Below the pieces are notes generated by a model. That model was not told where the DNA came from. It did not search any database and was given only the letters and a program-made list of their open reading frames with translations. This document shows positions 29,584 to 37,297 of a stretch of 64,000 bases of DNA, in pieces (the stretch's first letter is position 1; every line of letters starts with the position of its first letter). This stretch comes from a virus (lineage: Duplodnaviria > Caudoviricetes). The stretch is taken from positions 1 to 64,000 of the IMG/VR virus record IMGVR_UViG_2871003000_000003. One strand, given 5' to 3'. Position numbers and translations under genes: made by a program.

Positions 29584-29659
29584 CTCCTACGAAACGAAAG
29601 TTTCATCTTAATATTTTTCTAAATACTGCATATAGCTGTGACACCATATGCAGCTAAAT

Positions 29660-29746
29660 TTATTTACGTTTTCTTCCAAAAAAGAACCCAATGCAAGTTG
29701 CCATTACGATACACACAATAAATACCCATATATTTAATACAATCAT
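29660..29746 (-). CDS. 28 aa single-TM peptide (not in the ORF track)
   Basis: MIVLNIWVFIVCIVMATCIGFFFGRKRK; ATGA overlap with the upstream gene's stop. Confidence 0.65.
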   Translation of the reverse strand: MIVLNIWVFIVCIVMATCIGFFFGRKRK

Positions 29747-30495
29747 TTATTACCTCTTTTTCTTTTCATTTCTTCAATTGTTTGTCTTGCATTTCGTTCT
29801 CTCTCGCTTGCTTCAAGTCTCATGTCTTGAGCTTGTACACTAGAGTCAAAAGCAATTCTACTTCCTTCTGCTCTTCGCCTCGTTTTCTTGGCTCCTTCTC
29901 TGACTCTCTCTAGCATTCTTTCACTCTCATTATTCATATTCATACTGTCCATACTTTGATGGAGTTCAATAATCTGACTATCTGCTTCCATCTGGAATAA
30001 AACCTGTTCTTTTTCCTCTTTTAATTTCTGAAGATCTGAACTTGCCTGATTCCTAATTTCTTCCTGATGCATTTTAGCTTGTTTCATTTCTTCTATCGTA
30101 TCTTTTAATACCTTGATTTTGTTCTCTACTGTTTCTTTTTTCATAGCATATTGCATTGCAGAATTTTCATCATTATTATCTAAACATGCGTTAATTTCTT
30201 TTGTGATACGCATAATTTCTTTATTCGCATTGTATAAATCCTTTTCTGCGCTGTCTAATCTTCCAGAAATCTCCGCATATGTTGTAGATGCTTTATTATA
30301 AAACTCTTCTTTATCACGAATAGCTGCATTGTAATAATCTTTTGCCCCTTCTGGAGTAGACGCATCTTGTCTCATTACTTCGTCTGTTCTTCCTTTTAAT
30401 TTCACTCTTAATTGTTTTCCAAACGAAGAATTTAAGAAAATAACGACTAAAATAACAACGATTGCGACCAATACAATAAACATAAAATTTGTCAT
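29743..30495 (-). CDS. PspA/IM30-like coiled-coil protein with N-terminal TM anchor
   Basis: Long heptad coiled coil, TPEGAKDYY..AI, terminal helices as in PspA-like proteins. Confidence 0.6.
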   Translation of the reverse strand: MTNFMFIVLVAIVVILVVIFLNSSFGKQLRVKLKGRTDEVMRQDASTPEGAKDYYNAAIRDKEEFYNKASTTYAEISGRLDSAEKDLYNANKEIMRITKEINACLDNNDENSAMQYAMKKETVENKIKVLKDTIEEMKQAKMHQEEIRNQASSDLQKLKEEKEQVLFQMEADSQIIELHQSMDSMNMNNESERMLERVREGAKKTRRRAEGSRIAFDSSVQAQDMRLEASERERNARQTIEEMKRKRGNK

Positions 30496-30507
30496 ATACT
30501 TATTCTC

Positions 30508-31098
30508 CTATTCAACATCAATTCCGTATGTGCGACATAACGCTTCAAGCCCACCGTTATAACCACTTCCAACTGCTTTAAACTTCCATTCATTGTTGCG
30601 TCTATAAATTTCTCCAACAACAATCGCTGTCTCAGTAGAAAAATCCTCGCTCAAATCATATCTTAATAGCTGTTCTCCTGTTTCTTCGTCTAATACTCTA
30701 ATATACGCATTTTCTACCATTCCAAAATTTTGTAACCTATTGTTTGCATCATAAATTGTTACCGCAACGGATATTTTTTCACTATTATTCGGCAAATTCT
30801 GAAGATTTACTTTAATTACCTCATCATCACCTTCTCCATCGCCAGTTCTGTTGTCACCTGTATGGATGACACTTTTGGTTGAGTTTGAAAGGTTTCCATA
30901 AAACACAAAGTCCTTGTCATTACCAACTTTTCCGTTTGCGCCTGTAATAAATACAGACGCATCTAAATCGAAATCAGATTCTCCATCATAATGATTTGTA
31001 TCCCATCCAAGTCCAATAAGAAGTTTATGTAATGATGGTCGACCTTTTGTTAGATCTACTCTTTGTCCCTTCTCAAGATTAACAGACATTTCTCGCAC
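30508..31098 (-). CDS. terD: TerD-family protein
   Basis: GLGWD, FDLDAS, GDNRTGDGEGDDE, WKFKAVG. Confidence 0.93.
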   Translation of the reverse strand: MREMSVNLEKGQRVDLTKGRPSLHKLLIGLGWDTNHYDGESDFDLDASVFITGANGKVGNDKDFVFYGNLSNSTKSVIHTGDNRTGDGEGDDEVIKVNLQNLPNNSEKISVAVTIYDANNRLQNFGMVENAYIRVLDEETGEQLLRYDLSEDFSTETAIVVGEIYRRNNEWKFKAVGSGYNGGLEALCRTYGIDVE

Positions 31099-31106
31099 CT
31101 CATTTC

Positions 31107-31679
31107 TTATCTGTAATTTTCTGTTAATTCGCTAATACTTTTATCTGTAGTTCCTGTTCCAATAGCATTGAATTTCCACTCATTATTTTTCTTATACAAT
31201 TCTCCAAAAATCATTGCAGTTTTACCAGCGTAATTATCGGACAAATTGTATCTACAAATTTCATTTTTGCTAGACTGATCTACAATTCTAATAAATGCAT
31301 TTTTAATCATCCCAAAATCTTGTTTTCTTGCATTACATGCATAGATGTTAACTACAAATACAATTTTACCAACATTTTCTGGCATATTTTTTAAGTCAAC
31401 TGTGATCTGTTCATCGTCTCCGTCACCATCTCCTGTTAAGTTGTCTCCATGATGTAAAATGCAACCATCACTTGACCGGCGTGATCCGTAATAAATAACA
31501 TCCATATATTTATCTTCGTTGCTTAAAACAATTGCTGAAGCATCACAATCAATATCATGTGTTCTACCAAACAATCCTTTTTTCGCCGCATCCCAACCAA
31601 GCCCCACAACTACTTTCTCAAGACCATTTACTTCTTTTGATAAACTGATTTTCTGACCTTTTACTAAATTTACTGACAT
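31107..31679 (-). CDS. TerD/TerZ-family protein
   Basis: GLGWD, DCDAS, GDNLTGDGDGDDE. Confidence 0.92.
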   Translation of the reverse strand: MSVNLVKGQKISLSKEVNGLEKVVVGLGWDAAKKGLFGRTHDIDCDASAIVLSNEDKYMDVIYYGSRRSSDGCILHHGDNLTGDGDGDDEQITVDLKNMPENVGKIVFVVNIYACNARKQDFGMIKNAFIRIVDQSSKNEICRYNLSDNYAGKTAMIFGELYKKNNEWKFNAIGTGTTDKSISELTENYR

Positions 31680-31712
31680 ATTCTTATTCTCCTTTTTAAT
31701 TCTTTTTTTCTT

Positions 31713-32297
31713 TTATACATTCAATCCAAAGTTCTTTGCAATAGCTACAAATCCATCATTATATCCGCATCCAATTGCGTTAAATTTCCACTCTCCATTT
31801 TTACGATATAGCTCCCCAGCAACGATACCTGTTTCAAGAGAGAAATCTTCATCTAATTCATACTTAAATAGTTCTTCATTTGTATCAGCATCATATGCTC
31901 TAATATATGAATTGGACACCATCCCAAAATTCTGAAGCCTATCTTCGGCGTTATAAATTGCTGCAGCAAAACTGATTTTTTCAATATTCGATGGAATCTT
32001 ATTCAACTCTACTTTCATTGTTTCGTCATCGCCAGCTCCTTCGCCGGTTCTGTTGTCACCAGAATATACAATTGCTCCACTTGGATGACATGGCTGGTTA
32101 TAGAAAATAAAGTCCTGTTCACCAGTTACTTTACCGTTTGCATCTGTTAAAAATGCAGATACGTCAAGATCAAATGGTGCATTCCCATCATATTTGTTCG
32201 TATCCCATCCTAAACCAAATACAACATTTTTCAATCCGTCATTTCCTTTTGTTAAATCAACTTTCTGACCCTTTACTAAACTAATTGACATATTCAT
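31713..32297 (-). CDS. TerD/TerE-family protein
   Basis: GLGWD, FDLDVS, GDNRTGEGAGDDE. Confidence 0.92.
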   Translation of the reverse strand: MNMSISLVKGQKVDLTKGNDGLKNVVFGLGWDTNKYDGNAPFDLDVSAFLTDANGKVTGEQDFIFYNQPCHPSGAIVYSGDNRTGEGAGDDETMKVELNKIPSNIEKISFAAAIYNAEDRLQNFGMVSNSYIRAYDADTNEELFKYELDEDFSLETGIVAGELYRKNGEWKFNAIGCGYNDGFVAIAKNFGLNV

Positions 32298-32307
32298 GTT
32301 CTCCTTT

Positions 32308-34908
32308 TTAATTATTTGTTTTTGTAACTGCTTTTCTTACTAAATCAACTGGTATTACCATAAACGCAAGAACTACAATAATTAACCAATGATTGAAATC
32401 TAACGGTGTTACCTTAATCAATTCACCTGCAAAATTGCAAAGTATTACAGTAATCATAAAAATGCTAATTGCGATATATCCAAATAATTTATTTTTTCTA
32501 ATTCCTTTTAATAGATTGAAACTATCTGTTCTAATATTAAATCCGTTAAACACTGCCATAAAACATAACAATGCGAATCTCGCAGTCATTGCCTCTACAT
32601 CCGTTAAAAACATTTTAGAAATAGGACTAAGAATGATTACTCCATATAATGCAATAAAAGATATTGTACTAACTGCAATTCGTGTTTTGGCTCCCCTTAT
32701 AAATAATCCGGAACCTTTTTTAATTGGCTCTTCATACATGTATTCTTCTTTTGGTGGCTCTCCTCCAAAAGAAAGTGAATTCAACGAATCCATAATAATA
32801 TTTACAATAAGAATCTGTACCGATGCTAGTAATGATCCAACTGCTACAATCGGATACAACACACTCAAAATAAGTAAAGAAATGTTAATCGGTAACTGGA
32901 ACTCTAAAAACATCATAATGTTGTGCATAAATGTTCTTCCTAGTTCTACCGCTTTTACAACTGAAGCAAAATTATCGTCTGTAAGCACAATGTCTGACGC
33001 TTCTTTTGCAACATCGCTTCCTGTTTGCATTCCAAATCCAACATCAGAACGTTTTAATGCTGGCGAGTCATTTACCCCGTCTCCTGTCATCGCAACAGAT
33101 CTACCAATCTCTTGAGCTAAAGTAACAAGTCTCAATTTTGTATTCGGAGAGCATCTTGAAATTACTCTCAATGATGGGATAATTTCTTTGACATCTTCAT
33201 CACTCATATTTTCGAATTCATCATTTGTGAGAGCTACATCACCATCTTTGTAAATTCCGCATTCTTTTGCTACCGCAATTGCAGTTTCAATACAATCTCC
33301 TGTAATCTCAATAACTTGAATACCAGCTTTATGTGCAATATTCACTGCGTCTGGAACCTCGTCCCTAACAGGATCAACGACTCCAATAATACCAAGTAAT
33401 GACATATCTTCCGGTAGTTTATTCTCTTCTAACTTTTCATTTTTAGAAGACAACGCAATACATCTCATAGATTTCGTTGTCATTTCTCTAAGTTTATTCT
33501 GAATCGCTTCTTTGTCCTTAGATGTAAAAGATTTTCTATTTCCTTCCTCATCAATCATAAATGAACACTTTTCAATAATTCTCTCAGGCGCTCCTTTATA
33601 ATATGTAAGGTTGTCCTTTGTAGTAAACGCTGAATATTTATTACTACTGCTAAACACTTGCTTGTCTAACATTTGAATATTCTTATTAATATTTTTGTAT
33701 TCATCTGAATTAACTAAGGACATCATGGCTCTATCAATTGAATTTCCACCAGTAATCATCCCATCTTTGTCAAATGTAGAACTGTTGTTCAAAACAATGT
33801 TGTTTTTCATTTCATTCCACAATTTTGAATTCATATCAATTTCTTTTGTATTTGAACCAATAATTATCTTTGGAGTCATAACACCTGTTGTTAATGTTCC
33901 TGTCTTATCAGTACAAATAATGTCAACATATGCTAATTCAGGAATTTTACCTGGATTCTTGGCAAGGATATTGAACTTCTCCATTGTTTTTACGTTCTGT
34001 TTGGTAACAAGTTTTACAATTAATGGAAGTCCTTCCGGAACTGCAGCAACAACAATGGTTAATGCAACTGAAAAATTCTGTGCAAATTTCTGAATTAAAT
34101 TGAAAATGTCATCCGAAAAATATTTTGAAACACCAACTTCCATAATTCCAGAAACGGTAAGAACAATAAACGTAATTGATGCTGCAATCGTTCCCCACTT
34201 AGAAATAAAGCCACTTAAATTATCTAACGCAATATCAAGAGCTGTTTTAGGAGCCTCTAGTGTTTGCATTTTTACCAATGTATCTCCATTGACTGTATTT
34301 ACACCAACATCTGTGACAACCATTTTTCCTTCGCCGGACATCACGGTTGTTCCTGCAAACAAACAATTCTGATTTGTATACGCATCTGTCGATGTTGTTT
34401 TCTTATGAATATATCCATCAATCGGCGTTTTCTTACACTCTTTTGTTTCTCCATTAATTGCAGCATTGTTAACTGAAATTTTACCTTCCATAAGATATCC
34501 ATCTGCAAAAATCTCTTGTCCCATTCCTACACAAACAACATCTCCCACAACCAATTCATCTTTATTGATTGTTTGCAATTGACCATTTCGTATTACATCA
34601 CAATACCTAATAGATGTTTTTGCTCTTAATTCTGCTGCTGATTTTTGTACACCCAACCCTGTCTTAACCGCGATACAAGTTACAATTGCAAGAACAAACA
34701 TAATCATAAGCGGTTCAGATAATTCCATTACACCTAAAAACCCCAACACCATTTGCAACATGGCAATTGCAATTAAAATCATAGTGATTTTTTCACATAG
34801 AGCATCTTTTGCAAAATGATACCATTTTTTTAATTTCGGCTCTGGTAATTTATTAGAACCGTACTTTTCTCTGTTTTCCACAACTTGTTCATTTGTTAAT
34901 CCGTTCAT
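32308..34908 (-). CDS. P-type ATPase, P2 (Ca2+-transporting-like)
   Basis: PEGL, DKTGT, KGAPE, DP, TGDGVND, multiple TM helices; start at the SD-supported ATG at 34908. Confidence 0.93.
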   Translation of the reverse strand: MNGLTNEQVVENREKYGSNKLPEPKLKKWYHFAKDALCEKITMILIAIAMLQMVLGFLGVMELSEPLMIMFVLAIVTCIAVKTGLGVQKSAAELRAKTSIRYCDVIRNGQLQTINKDELVVGDVVCVGMGQEIFADGYLMEGKISVNNAAINGETKECKKTPIDGYIHKKTTSTDAYTNQNCLFAGTTVMSGEGKMVVTDVGVNTVNGDTLVKMQTLEAPKTALDIALDNLSGFISKWGTIAASITFIVLTVSGIMEVGVSKYFSDDIFNLIQKFAQNFSVALTIVVAAVPEGLPLIVKLVTKQNVKTMEKFNILAKNPGKIPELAYVDIICTDKTGTLTTGVMTPKIIIGSNTKEIDMNSKLWNEMKNNIVLNNSSTFDKDGMITGGNSIDRAMMSLVNSDEYKNINKNIQMLDKQVFSSSNKYSAFTTKDNLTYYKGAPERIIEKCSFMIDEEGNRKSFTSKDKEAIQNKLREMTTKSMRCIALSSKNEKLEENKLPEDMSLLGIIGVVDPVRDEVPDAVNIAHKAGIQVIEITGDCIETAIAVAKECGIYKDGDVALTNDEFENMSDEDVKEIIPSLRVISRCSPNTKLRLVTLAQEIGRSVAMTGDGVNDSPALKRSDVGFGMQTGSDVAKEASDIVLTDDNFASVVKAVELGRTFMHNIMMFLEFQLPINISLLILSVLYPIVAVGSLLASVQILIVNIIMDSLNSLSFGGEPPKEEYMYEEPIKKGSGLFIRGAKTRIAVSTISFIALYGVIILSPISKMFLTDVEAMTARFALLCFMAVFNGFNIRTDSFNLLKGIRKNKLFGYIAISIFMITVILCNFAGELIKVTPLDFNHWLIIVVLAFMVIPVDLVRKAVTKTNN

Positions 34909-34909
34909 C

Positions 34910-37297
34910 TTACTCTCCTTTTTCATTTTCTTTATGTAAATCACCAATCTCTTTCATGGCGCGTACATACGCTTCTTTCTGAATATTAATTGCTCTTTCA
35001 CGTTTTTTCTTATCTCTTTTTACTTTTCGCTCATGAGCAAGTCTCTTTTTCATTGCTTCTTCATGTTTCTTATTCTCTTCTTCAACAAGTTTTCTATCAT
35101 GTTCTTTAATTGCCTTATCGACCATCTTTACATATTTCTTTTGGTAAGAAAGTTCTGTTGCCATATGCTCAATTCCTTCTAATGTATATTTGTCTTTATA
35201 CATTTTTTTTGATAAAGCAACAAATAAACCTCTCTGTAAATCAAACTTGTCCTTGTCATCACAAACAACTTTCTCCTGTGTGTTATCACTAAAATCAACT
35301 CTAATTACTTTATTTGGAAATAAAATTTCAAAACTAGAAATTTCAATGTTATTATTATCTTCGTATACAGATGATTTAGAAATTTCTAATCCAATTCCAC
35401 TGCACATCTCCTTACATAGATTATAAGTCGTCTTTACTTTATAAAAATCTTCCTTCATTCTCTATTCTCCTTTTATCTATATGTTTTATAATATCTATAA
35501 CAAAAATTAGTCAAAAAATAATAAAGCTATATACATATTAAATTTATTTCATTTTATTTAATCATAATTCCGAAAAATCAAAGTGCTCACCGCAGCTACA
35601 CTCAACCGTCCCAAACACTCCAATTGATGTTGGCGTAAAATGATATGTATAGCTTCCGCCAATTGCTCCACCATACCTAATCTTTTTAGAAGATTTTGTA
35701 ATTCCATGAACTTTTTCTTCGTGTTCATTCTTCCATTTCTTAATTCTCTCATTTTCAATCTCTGTAATTGGAAATCCGCGCAGAAGATCTTCTCTCATAT
35801 TATCTAACTGTTGATTCATCTTCTGAATTTCTTCATCTTTGTCGTATTCGTCTGTCAGTCTTTTATTCTCTTTTACAAGACGGTCAATGCGCATATCTTT
35901 GTTTTTACATTCATCCATAATAAAATCAACTGCGTCCTGAACTGTCCTACACGTTTTCTCTGATCTCACCAGCATAATTAGTCCTCTTTTTTCTTATTCT
36001 CTTCTTGATTCACTCCAACATTCGCTATTTTATAAAGAATATCGTATAACCATCCACGAAAACTACACTTTCGTGATTCAAATTTATCAGCTATGTAACA
36101 AAGTAATATAATTACAAATATAATTACAGGTGAAAACCATCCGCATAAACATATACATAATAAATCTCTTACATTAAAATAATCCTTTAAATCTTCTTTG
36201 TTATATTCACTTTTCCTTAAAGTACTAAGAAGCAAAAACAGCCATGAAAGAAAACCTACAAAAATCCACGATACAATAATCACTAAAATCCACCTCCGTT
36301 CTACTGCAGTATAAAACCAAGATTTAATTCATTTGACTTGTTCATTTGTTCTTCCTTACAATTCAATATAATTCCATCTTTTCTTATCTTCGTATTTCCA
36401 CTGGATCTGTCCCTGGTAAATTCTCGTCTCGATATTTACTACATTGTCCATACCTAGGATAAATTCTCTATAAGAATCAATATCTCTTTCTGACAAATCA
36501 TGAATCGTTTTAAAAATATCTAAATTCTTACAAATATGTTCTACTGACCACTCGTAATCTGTTAATGAAAGCTGTCTTTCAAATTATTCTTGCACGATTA
36601 CATTATTATCTTTAGGATTATCTTTTACATGTAGTTCTGCATAAACTTCATAGACATCCGACTTAAAGAATGAGTTACTGTAAACAAGTCCATCTAATAA
36701 ATTCACCGCACAATTTTCTCCGATATCTGAAAGTTTCATATAGTAAGTTTCTCTGAAGCAAAATACATGTCCTGATTTAATGTTCATTACATTTGTCATC
36801 ATTTTCTTATTCGATACAATTTTCATATAATCAGTCATCCTTCCTATTTTTATAAATGACACCATTTATTTACTAAGTCCGCCTGCTTTTCTGTGAGTTC
36901 TGTAAGAAGAATCTCATTTAATAAATCAAGTTGCAATTCAGCCATCTCTCTACAAATCTCTCCGCACTCTGGCTCCGGTTTTTCGCTACATTTTTTACAT
37001 GCTCCTGTACAAATCTTCATATTTAAATCGCTCCATTTCTTTCTTCTGTTTCTGAATCTTAATTGCCTGATCACAAATAATCTCGCGTAAAATTTCAATA
37101 TCTTGTTTATGCATATCAGTAGATGTATTAGCCATTGTATTTGTTTTTATCAATGAACAAATACACTCCATACATTCTGTCATATCATCAACAGTAATAT
37201 CTGATTGACATCCATTTTCTACCATTAAATATAATTCACTCAAATTCTTGTTATATTGTCTAATTGTATCTAAATTTTCTTCAGATAACTTTCTCAT
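34910..37297 (-). CDS. hypothetical proteins (34910-35458, 35562-35975, 35978-36283, 36584-36865, 36995-37297)
   Basis: Co-oriented ORFs, no recognisable motifs. Confidence 0.6.

Follow-up and report, generated by a model that had tools for sequence, protein, structure and literature searches.

Genes for PspA-type proteins and for Ca2+-translocating P-type ATPases have recently been described side by side in large bacteriophages. The available passages of a preprint of 24 October 2026 (bioRxiv 10.64898/2026.10.24.761521) report 42 loci of huge phages in which PspA neighbours a Ca2+ P-type ATPase, and pspA in 667 IMG/VR phages. A second study, as far as its available passages go, describes Ca2+ pumps of phages, four of which have genomes of 159-197 kb, and the pumps include some that are closest to Bacillota (Sci Adv 2026, PMC12880540). 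Here we present the case of a locus of this kind at positions 29660-34908 of a 64,000-nucleotide stretch of DNA (the window), which is the first 64 kb of the IMG/VR record IMGVR_UViG_2871003000_000003, a 165.8-kb provirus that is 99% complete. Six genes on the minus strand encode, in the direction of reading, a PMCA-type calcium pump, three TerD proteins, a PspA-like protein with a transmembrane anchor and a membrane peptide of 28 amino acids (Table 1).

The locus shares with the module of the preprint passages the gene set and order (pump, then TerD or vWA, then PspA), the setting in large gut phages of Bacillota, and a PspA closest to Lachnospiraceae. The definition given in those passages, a phage-borne pspA adjacent to a Ca2+ P-type ATPase and separated from it by TerD and/or vWA genes, describes the window as well as relatives of the two architectures reported below. 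The preprint, as represented by these passages, deals mainly with phages of more than 200 kb, whereas the present phage has 166 kb and is temperate. With the pumps of Jug and other gut phages in the PMC12880540 passages, the window pump has in common that it is full-length, PMCA/LMCA1-like and equipped with all key motifs. The Jug pumps of those passages differ in being Bacteroidaceae-like, in having an upstream protein of 77-91 amino acids, and in having terD and pspA-like genes in separate operons, whereas here all are in one operon. A preliminary description of the window had called a complete ion pump in a phage unusual, a remark that is out of date now that such pumps and the same neighbourhood have been published in 2026. 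The module type itself is thus already published; what we add is the conservation of the micropeptide, a covarying hairpin, a counterpart in Lachnospiraceae and the orthology of the second TerD. The available preprint passages do not mention a transmembrane anchor, a coupled micropeptide, a 3' stem-loop, two exchangeable architectures or a cellular TelA-TerD-pump operon, and in those of PMC12880540 we likewise found no mention of anchor, peptide or hairpin.

Results

Conservation of the module among phages

At least 127 viral contigs in IMG/VR, mostly 90-250 kb in length, encode the pump at 65-99% identity, and a single cluster of pumps at 99% identity collects 864 member sequences. In 82 of the 97 loci that we fetched, the pump is followed by TerD and a PspA-like gene, while the flanking genes are common to between 0 and 18 of the 97. 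Because this association is conserved in at least 82 loci while the flanks vary, we regard pump, TerD and PspA-like protein as functionally linked. The loci come in two architectures. Both begin with the pump and end with the PspA-like gene and the peptide. Between these, architecture A, which is that of the window, has three TerD genes, and architecture B has a TerF-type vWA gene followed by one divergent TerD. In a midpoint-rooted tree of the pumps, the two architectures are interleaved, and the near-identical pumps of loci L029 and L045 carry different downstream blocks. As an extreme example, L109 and L110 have architecture A with a pump that is only 46% identical, so that the pump lineages span 46-99% identity. 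This repeated rebuilding of the pump-TerD-PspA association argues for a functional link, and the comparison of loci supports the view that ATPase, TerD, PspA-like protein and peptide act as one Ca2+ and membrane module. The preliminary description had proposed a module of this sort; the proposal is strengthened by an association kept in more than 80 loci despite different flanks, different pump identities and swaps of the TerD block, a strength that does not extend to the specific roles it named, superinfection exclusion or the countering of depolarising abortive infection.

The host of the cassette is a large temperate phage of gut Clostridia. The phage genome has two tyrosine integrases, and the phage nature of the window is apparent from genes for DnaE, helicases, NrdD, ligases (including a NAD-ligase), PNK and RNA ligase; its DnaE-type polymerase is 52% identical to the counterpart in Clostridium phage c-st. 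Among phages, those closest in DnaE (74-77% identity, with one of these genomes 92% complete) have neither pump nor TerD, in searches where the positive controls worked. Because these nearest relatives lack the operon, we interpret the cassette as mobile accessory cargo. Genes adjoining the module in relatives include the conflict genes GmrSD, PemK, SIR2 and PARG. PHROGs already has families for all three protein types.

The operon has no nucleotide-level match in GenBank phages. A recent capture from a host can be rejected, given this lack of a match in GenBank phages and the distance of the cellular relatives. The preliminary description had asked for a synteny search in phages and chromosomes, which finds the cassette conserved across phage loci and only distant relatives in cells. 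It had also held that its reading would fail for a near-identical host operon, recently captured and absent from related phages. The absence from the nearest related phages is indeed observed, but the near-identical host source is not, the closest cellular pump being about 70% identical.

Three further observations concern individual loci. The 250-kb record IMGVR_UViG_3300029402_000234 carries two separate vWA-type modules (L061 and L074), with pumps 69% and 67% identical to that of the window, and may represent two prophages or a chimeric assembly. In L102-L105:12618-12809 and the loci of a group at 77% identity, there is an extra open reading frame (ORF) of 63 amino acids in a 225-bp gap between pump and TerD1; this ORF is not in the window. 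Finally, L084, L106 and L110 have the module together with phage genes on contigs binned as 'uncultured Treponema sp.', which are probably mis-binned phage contigs.

Table 1. Features of the operon and its surroundings, in window coordinates.
Feature	Position	Strand	Evidence and remarks
Candidate sigma-A-type promoter, TTGACT-18 nt-TATAAA	35485..35514	-	Read by eye; in the 104-nt gap before 34910-35458; function inferred
182-aa protein, unknown function	34910..35458	-	Stop 1 nt ahead of the ATPase start; not core of the module
PMCA-type (P2B) Ca2+-translocating P-type ATPase, 866 aa	32308..34908	-	TIGR01517, motifs, solved relatives
TerD paralogue 1 (TerD1), 194 aa	31713..32297	-	PF02342 E 1.1e-75, 253.7 bits; DxDxD and GDNRTGEGAGDDE motifs
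TerD paralogue 2 (TerD2), 190 aa, divergent	31107..31679	-	PF02342 E 9.6e-71, 237.6 bits; GDNLTGDGDGDDE
TerD paralogue 3 (TerD3), 196 aa	30508..31098	-	PF02342 E 4.4e-81, 271.3 bits; likely start ATG at 31089
PspA/Vipp1-like (ESCRT-III-type) coiled-coil protein, N-terminal transmembrane anchor, 250 aa	29743..30495	-	Pfam, profile, AlphaFold2, Foldseek
Single-pass membrane peptide, 28 aa (MIVLNIWVF...GRKRK)	29660..29746	-	Translationally coupled to the PspA-like gene
Conserved 3' stem-loop closing the operon	29625..29654	-	12-bp stem, dG -17.3 kcal/mol, z -3.8 against shuffles
aa, amino acids; nt, nucleotides.

The calcium pump

We place the start of the ATPase at the ATG at 34908, which is preceded by the ribosome-binding site AAAGGAGAG; this agrees with the end coordinate in the preliminary description. 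The protein scores 509.8 bits with TIGR01517, narrowly above the cut-off of 507.05 bits. Elsewhere in the family, the L109 pump (515.7) and the pump of the host operon at L151 (558.3) also pass, and the solitary host pump at L094 (500.9) falls just under. The closest solved structures are those of the plant pump ACA8 (8qmp) and of LMCA1 from Listeria (6zhf). The window pump has the phosphorylation motif CTDKTGTLT, the hinge motif TGDGVND, AVPEGLP in transmembrane helix 4 (TM4) and VNIIMDSL in TM6; the DKTGT, TGDGVND, PEGLP and TM6 motifs are kept in nearly all 97 relatives, in the pattern of a single Ca2+ site. The TGES motif of the A domain is the one that is altered: at residues ~155-160 the window pump has NGET, in which the glutamate is retained. 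NGE(T/S) stands in place of the near-universal TGES throughout this subfamily of pumps, with NGES in some relatives. Because the solitary chromosomal pumps of Oscillospiraceae have the same variant, we consider NGET a trait of the subfamily and not a sign of decay in the phage, and we reject the idea that the pump is degenerate on its account. Altogether, motifs and homologs predict a Ca2+ exporter of the PMCA/LMCA1 type.

The TerD proteins

All three TerD paralogues exceed the PF02342 gathering score of 25.3 bits. TerD1, TerD2 and TerD3 each have both Ca2+-binding motifs, DxDxD and GDN(R/L)TG.G.GDDE, which we take to be the two motifs defined in the structural work on 2kxt. The alignment of TerD3 with this Klebsiella TerD runs from end to end (E 4e-67), with both motifs retained. 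In the vWA-type architecture, the second motif of the single TerD is interrupted by an insertion. In the TerD phylogeny, TerD1 is a separate orthologous group across phages, and TerD2 is the sister of the third TerD in the Lachnospiraceae chromosomal operon described below, with 100% support; by this placement the phage TerD2 is orthologous to the third host TerD.

In a relative that is 99% identical (L004:11270-12308), TerD2 appears to be in two pieces and TerD3 is shortened, which points to local decay or to an error in sequencing. In the window, the TAG stop of TerD3 is in frame with the ATG of the PspA-like gene 12 nucleotides downstream (30493-30510), and two rare database variants, P0157 and P0141, are TerD3-PspA fusions of 448 and 444 amino acids. 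We do not use these fusions as evidence of an interaction, because the two genes are not consistently in frame from locus to locus, and because the membrane topology would be inverted in a fused protein.

The PspA-like protein

The PspA-like protein scores 31.3 bits (E 2e-7) with PspA_IM30 (PF04012), below the gathering score of 33.9, and many of its close relatives have a precomputed match to this family. A profile of 23 relatives finds Vipp1 when compared with the Protein Data Bank (PDB; E 4.6e-4). The AlphaFold2 model (pLDDT 82) has a transmembrane helix at residues 2-22 and a long helical hairpin at 48-186, with helices at 48-106, 110-186 and 189-248 and a pLDDT of 91-98 in the hairpin, which is the arrangement of an ESCRT-III-type fold. 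Its top Foldseek matches are Vipp1/PspA, with probability 1.0, TM-scores of 0.5-0.6 and an E-value of 4.5e-3. Weak E-values are usual in fold matches of coiled coils. The amphipathic helix alpha-0 is missing; in its place, all 23 aligned relatives have a hydrophobic transmembrane helix (~3-22) plus basic residues. From the model and the profile, the protein appears to be an ESCRT-III-like relative of PspA/Vipp1 in which alpha-0 is replaced by a transmembrane anchor. It resembles PspA, Vipp1 (IM30) and LiaH (PF04012; PDB 6zvr, 4whe) in the predicted helical hairpin, the helices that follow, and the top profile and fold matches; it differs from them in the anchor at the alpha-0 site, in its sub-threshold Pfam score and in the dedicated membrane peptide encoded alongside. 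A motif DA(S/Q)TPEGA.xYYN is near-invariant in the family, which is almost confined to these phage and prophage loci: it has 822 clusters in total, and 9 loci in 185,579 species genomes.

The micropeptide

The ATG of the micropeptide overlaps the stop codon of the PspA-like gene (ATGA) in the window. Across the 82 loci, 69 have the peptide, always at a distance of -4, -1 or +1 nucleotides from that stop. Residues F9 and G20 are invariant and N5, G7, C12, F17 and G24 near-invariant, with their synonymous codons varying, and the ratio pN/pS is 0.47; by these measures the peptide is under purifying selection. It is more conserved than the PspA-like protein itself. A chance ORF is rejected, given the retention in 69 of the 82 loci with synonymous variation. 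G20xxxG24 is a packing motif, and the predicted topology places the basic C-terminus in the cytoplasm.

Because the peptide goes with the PspA-like gene, and no such peptide adjoins the solitary host pumps, we read it as a putative partner of the anchored PspA-like protein. Single-pass micropeptides that regulate P-type ATPases are known, with sarcolipin, phospholamban and KdpF as examples. The phage peptide resembles these in being a membrane peptide of ~30 amino acids encoded or acting with a P-type pump; we have seen no sequence similarity, for which none of them was tested, and the predicted topology of the phage peptide is opposite to theirs. We therefore consider it less likely that the peptide, which is coupled to the PspA-like gene and never found beside solitary pumps, regulates the pump in the manner of sarcolipin.

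The transcription unit and its 3' stem-loop

Every gene of the region lies on the minus strand. The locus at 29660-34908 consists of six intact, compact ORFs of the same orientation with a hairpin at the 3' end; from pump to peptide, the spacers are 10, 33, 8-17 and 12 nucleotides, followed by a 4-nucleotide overlap. This agrees with the preliminary description, which had listed six tightly spaced co-oriented genes, all of them uninterrupted ORFs on the minus strand. The identities it gave to the genes are upheld by family models, structure matches and motifs, including the terminal 28-residue transmembrane peptide, for which conservation in 69 loci speaks, and the hairpin it had put at about 29627-29653 is real. 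The PspA-like assignment gains the fold and profile matches to Vipp1/PspA, and has to be read with a Pfam score below the gathering threshold. The extent of the operon is right for the six genes but needs one correction, in that the gene upstream at 34910-35458 probably also belongs to the transcript.

This upstream gene, for a protein without match in Pfam, PHROG, NCBIfam or PADLOC, is found in 6 of the 97 loci, the closest relatives only, and is probably cotranscribed with the six-gene set. Because it stops 1 nucleotide before the ATPase and the gap ahead of it contains a candidate promoter, transcription probably starts in this 104-nucleotide gap. The window has just two copies of the pattern TTGACT-18-TATAAA on its minus strand. 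The 69 bp around it (35464-35532) are 81-83% conserved in two relatives without the module (G006 and G009), where this piece precedes other cargo genes; it resembles a promoter segment that the phages share at a site of cargo exchange. Candidate promoter, seven ORFs and conserved stem-loop would together form one compact transcription unit.

Of 68 loci, 35 have a 13-bp stem-loop at this same position, directly behind the peptide gene. Compensatory changes are seen in 10 of its 13 pairs; 94.7% of cells are paired, compared with 70% after shuffling and no more than 47% when the partners are shifted, and the loop GYCAYA is conserved. Examples in relatives are at L009:13468-13507 and L084:13255-13294. 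The stem-loop has no U-tract, which makes a classic intrinsic terminator doubtful, and no Rfam match. The motif is unique in the 165.8-kb genome, and as a single copy it is rejected as a genome-wide terminator motif. It may be an RNA element specific to this operon rather than a plain terminator.

Cellular counterparts and origin

Pumps that are 67-71% identical to the window pump are solitary genes in ordinary chromosomal contexts in Ruminococcus and in metagenome-assembled genomes of Oscillospiraceae. These solitary host pumps form one clade inside the diversity of the phage pumps; as the tree is midpoint-rooted only, transfer between phage and host may have run in either direction.

TerD genes are present in 12 of 81 sampled Lachnospiraceae genomes, and in 8 of the 81 they are followed by a PMCA-type pump (558 bits) that is 33-36% identical to the phage pump. 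The order at L151 (G094:C27:375000-394999) is rhomboid, YceG-domain protein, TelA, three TerD, PMCA-type ATPase and HAD hydrolase. YceG and TelA upstream of TerD are annotated in L151 only; the other TerD-pump loci are L150, L152-L155, L157 and L158. In the literature that we searched, we found no description of this YceG-TelA-TerDx3-pump operon, which is presumably the Clostridial version of Bacillus yceCDEFGH with a Ca2+ pump at the site of TerC. The phage TerDs are 52-65% identical to those of Lachnospiraceae.

The comparison with yceCDEFGH draws on general knowledge of that operon. The phage cassette has in common with it, and with the Lachnospiraceae operon, tandem TerDs, a membrane cation transporter and a coiled-coil membrane-associated protein. 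It differs from the cellular Ter/yce operons in that the pump comes first and is of another lineage (33-36% identity to the operon pump, ~70% to the solitary Oscillospiraceae pumps), in that the coiled-coil partner is PspA-like with no detectable homology to TelA, and in that YceG is lacking. TerB, TerC and TelA were not found anywhere in the 165.8-kb phage, with positive controls, so it has no classic ter/yce operon. The possibility that the PspA-like protein is a diverged TelA is rejected, the hhalign probability being 1%. From gene content and order, the cassette appears to be a phage re-build of a cellular envelope-stress operon of the Ter/yce type, with the PspA-like protein and the peptide in the place of TelA.

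Discussion

We lean, with a little more than even confidence, towards a cassette for controlling Ca2+ and keeping the cytoplasmic membrane intact in the infected or lysogenic cell, as the conserved association of its genes suggests. The high transcription of phage Ca2+ pumps in the gut that PMC12880540 describes also speaks for it. In this proposal, membrane damage or leakiness induced by a phage would admit Ca2+, which the TerD proteins would bind as a buffer or sensor; the anchored PspA-like protein and the peptide would then polymerise on the inner face of the membrane and stabilise it, and the pump would export Ca2+ and so reset the cell. Several of our results weigh against it. The Ca2+ specificity of the pump comes from homology only, its TIGR01517 score is barely over the cut-off (509.8 against 507), and its A-domain motif is NGET and not TGES. 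The PspA-like protein is under the Pfam gathering threshold, and its fold-match E-values are weak (4.5e-3 or worse). The micropeptide is dispensable, since 13 of the 82 loci are without it.

Other explanations differ from this proposal mainly in who benefits. If the beneficiary is the lysogen, the cassette could be a prophage defence or superinfection exclusion system, comparable to the plasmid ter operons acting against phages and colicins, and it might exclude incoming phages by removing the Ca2+ that they need or by resealing the membrane at the site of injection. The phage is temperate, with its two integrases, and the unit resembles a moron in having its own candidate promoter and a closing stem-loop. 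Conflict genes are close by, with PNK, RNA ligase, methyltransferases and TranC CRISPR in the window and those named above in relatives, and the patchy presence among close relatives is typical of defence cargo. For ter operons, inhibition of phages and resistance to colicins have been reported (PMC8123226). On the other hand, PADLOC models match none of the eight proteins scanned, and the phage lacks the TerB, TerC and TelA of classic ter loci; on balance we think a defence role unlikely. If the benefit falls instead in the lytic cycle, the cassette would serve counter-defence or takeover, keeping the host energised until assembly is done, against depolarising or pore-forming effectors of abortive infection or against the phage's own envelope stress. 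Its genes have the same orientation as the early, replication and anti-restriction genes on that strand. The available passages of PMC12880540 rank phage Ca2+ pumps with the phage genes of highest transcription in gut metatranscriptomes, and the discussion section of the preprint (bioRxiv 10.64898/2026.10.24.761521), in the part available, states that PspA proteins limit proton leakage. This mechanism overlaps with that of the Ca2+ and membrane-integrity proposal, from which it differs only in the selective benefit, and as a separate explanation we find it quite unlikely.

The cassette could also act by lysogenic conversion, giving the host tolerance in the gut to high Ca2+ or Mn2+, bile salts, bacteriocins or metalloids; in that case the pump may export Mn2+ or Ca2+, in a role like that of TerC (YceF) in the Bacillus yce operon. 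Only ~10-15% of the sampled Lachnospiraceae have the counterpart operon, so that a phage copy could supply a missing trait, and the 864 members of one pump cluster show that the pump is carried very widely in gut samples. However, the cellular pumps nearest to it are solitary genes of an ordinary housekeeping kind, so that many hosts are already equipped with a Ca2+ exporter, and we give conversion the status of a very unlikely explanation. A bolder form of the Ca2+ and membrane-integrity proposal, which we would put forward only as a long shot, is a Ca2+-triggered membrane-repair machine in which TerD sensors would switch on or recruit the tethered ESCRT-III-like polymer at leaks and the pump would end the signal.

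Such a repair machine, if it exists, would be a prokaryotic or phage analogue of eukaryotic wound repair by ALG-2 and ESCRT-III, and would give a first defined molecular role to the TerD proteins, which are widespread and bind Ca2+ and have so far had no defined function. In that case, the covarying 3' stem-loop with its conserved loop would be a site dedicated to regulating the operon. Little is understood of Ca2+ signalling in bacteria or of the partners that PspA-type proteins have, and the compact operon offers a small, transferable test system for both and for TerD function, with the cellular counterpart, which has TelA in the same place, as a natural comparison. The phages that carry the cassette are very common in human and animal guts, where an effect on host physiology could matter ecologically.

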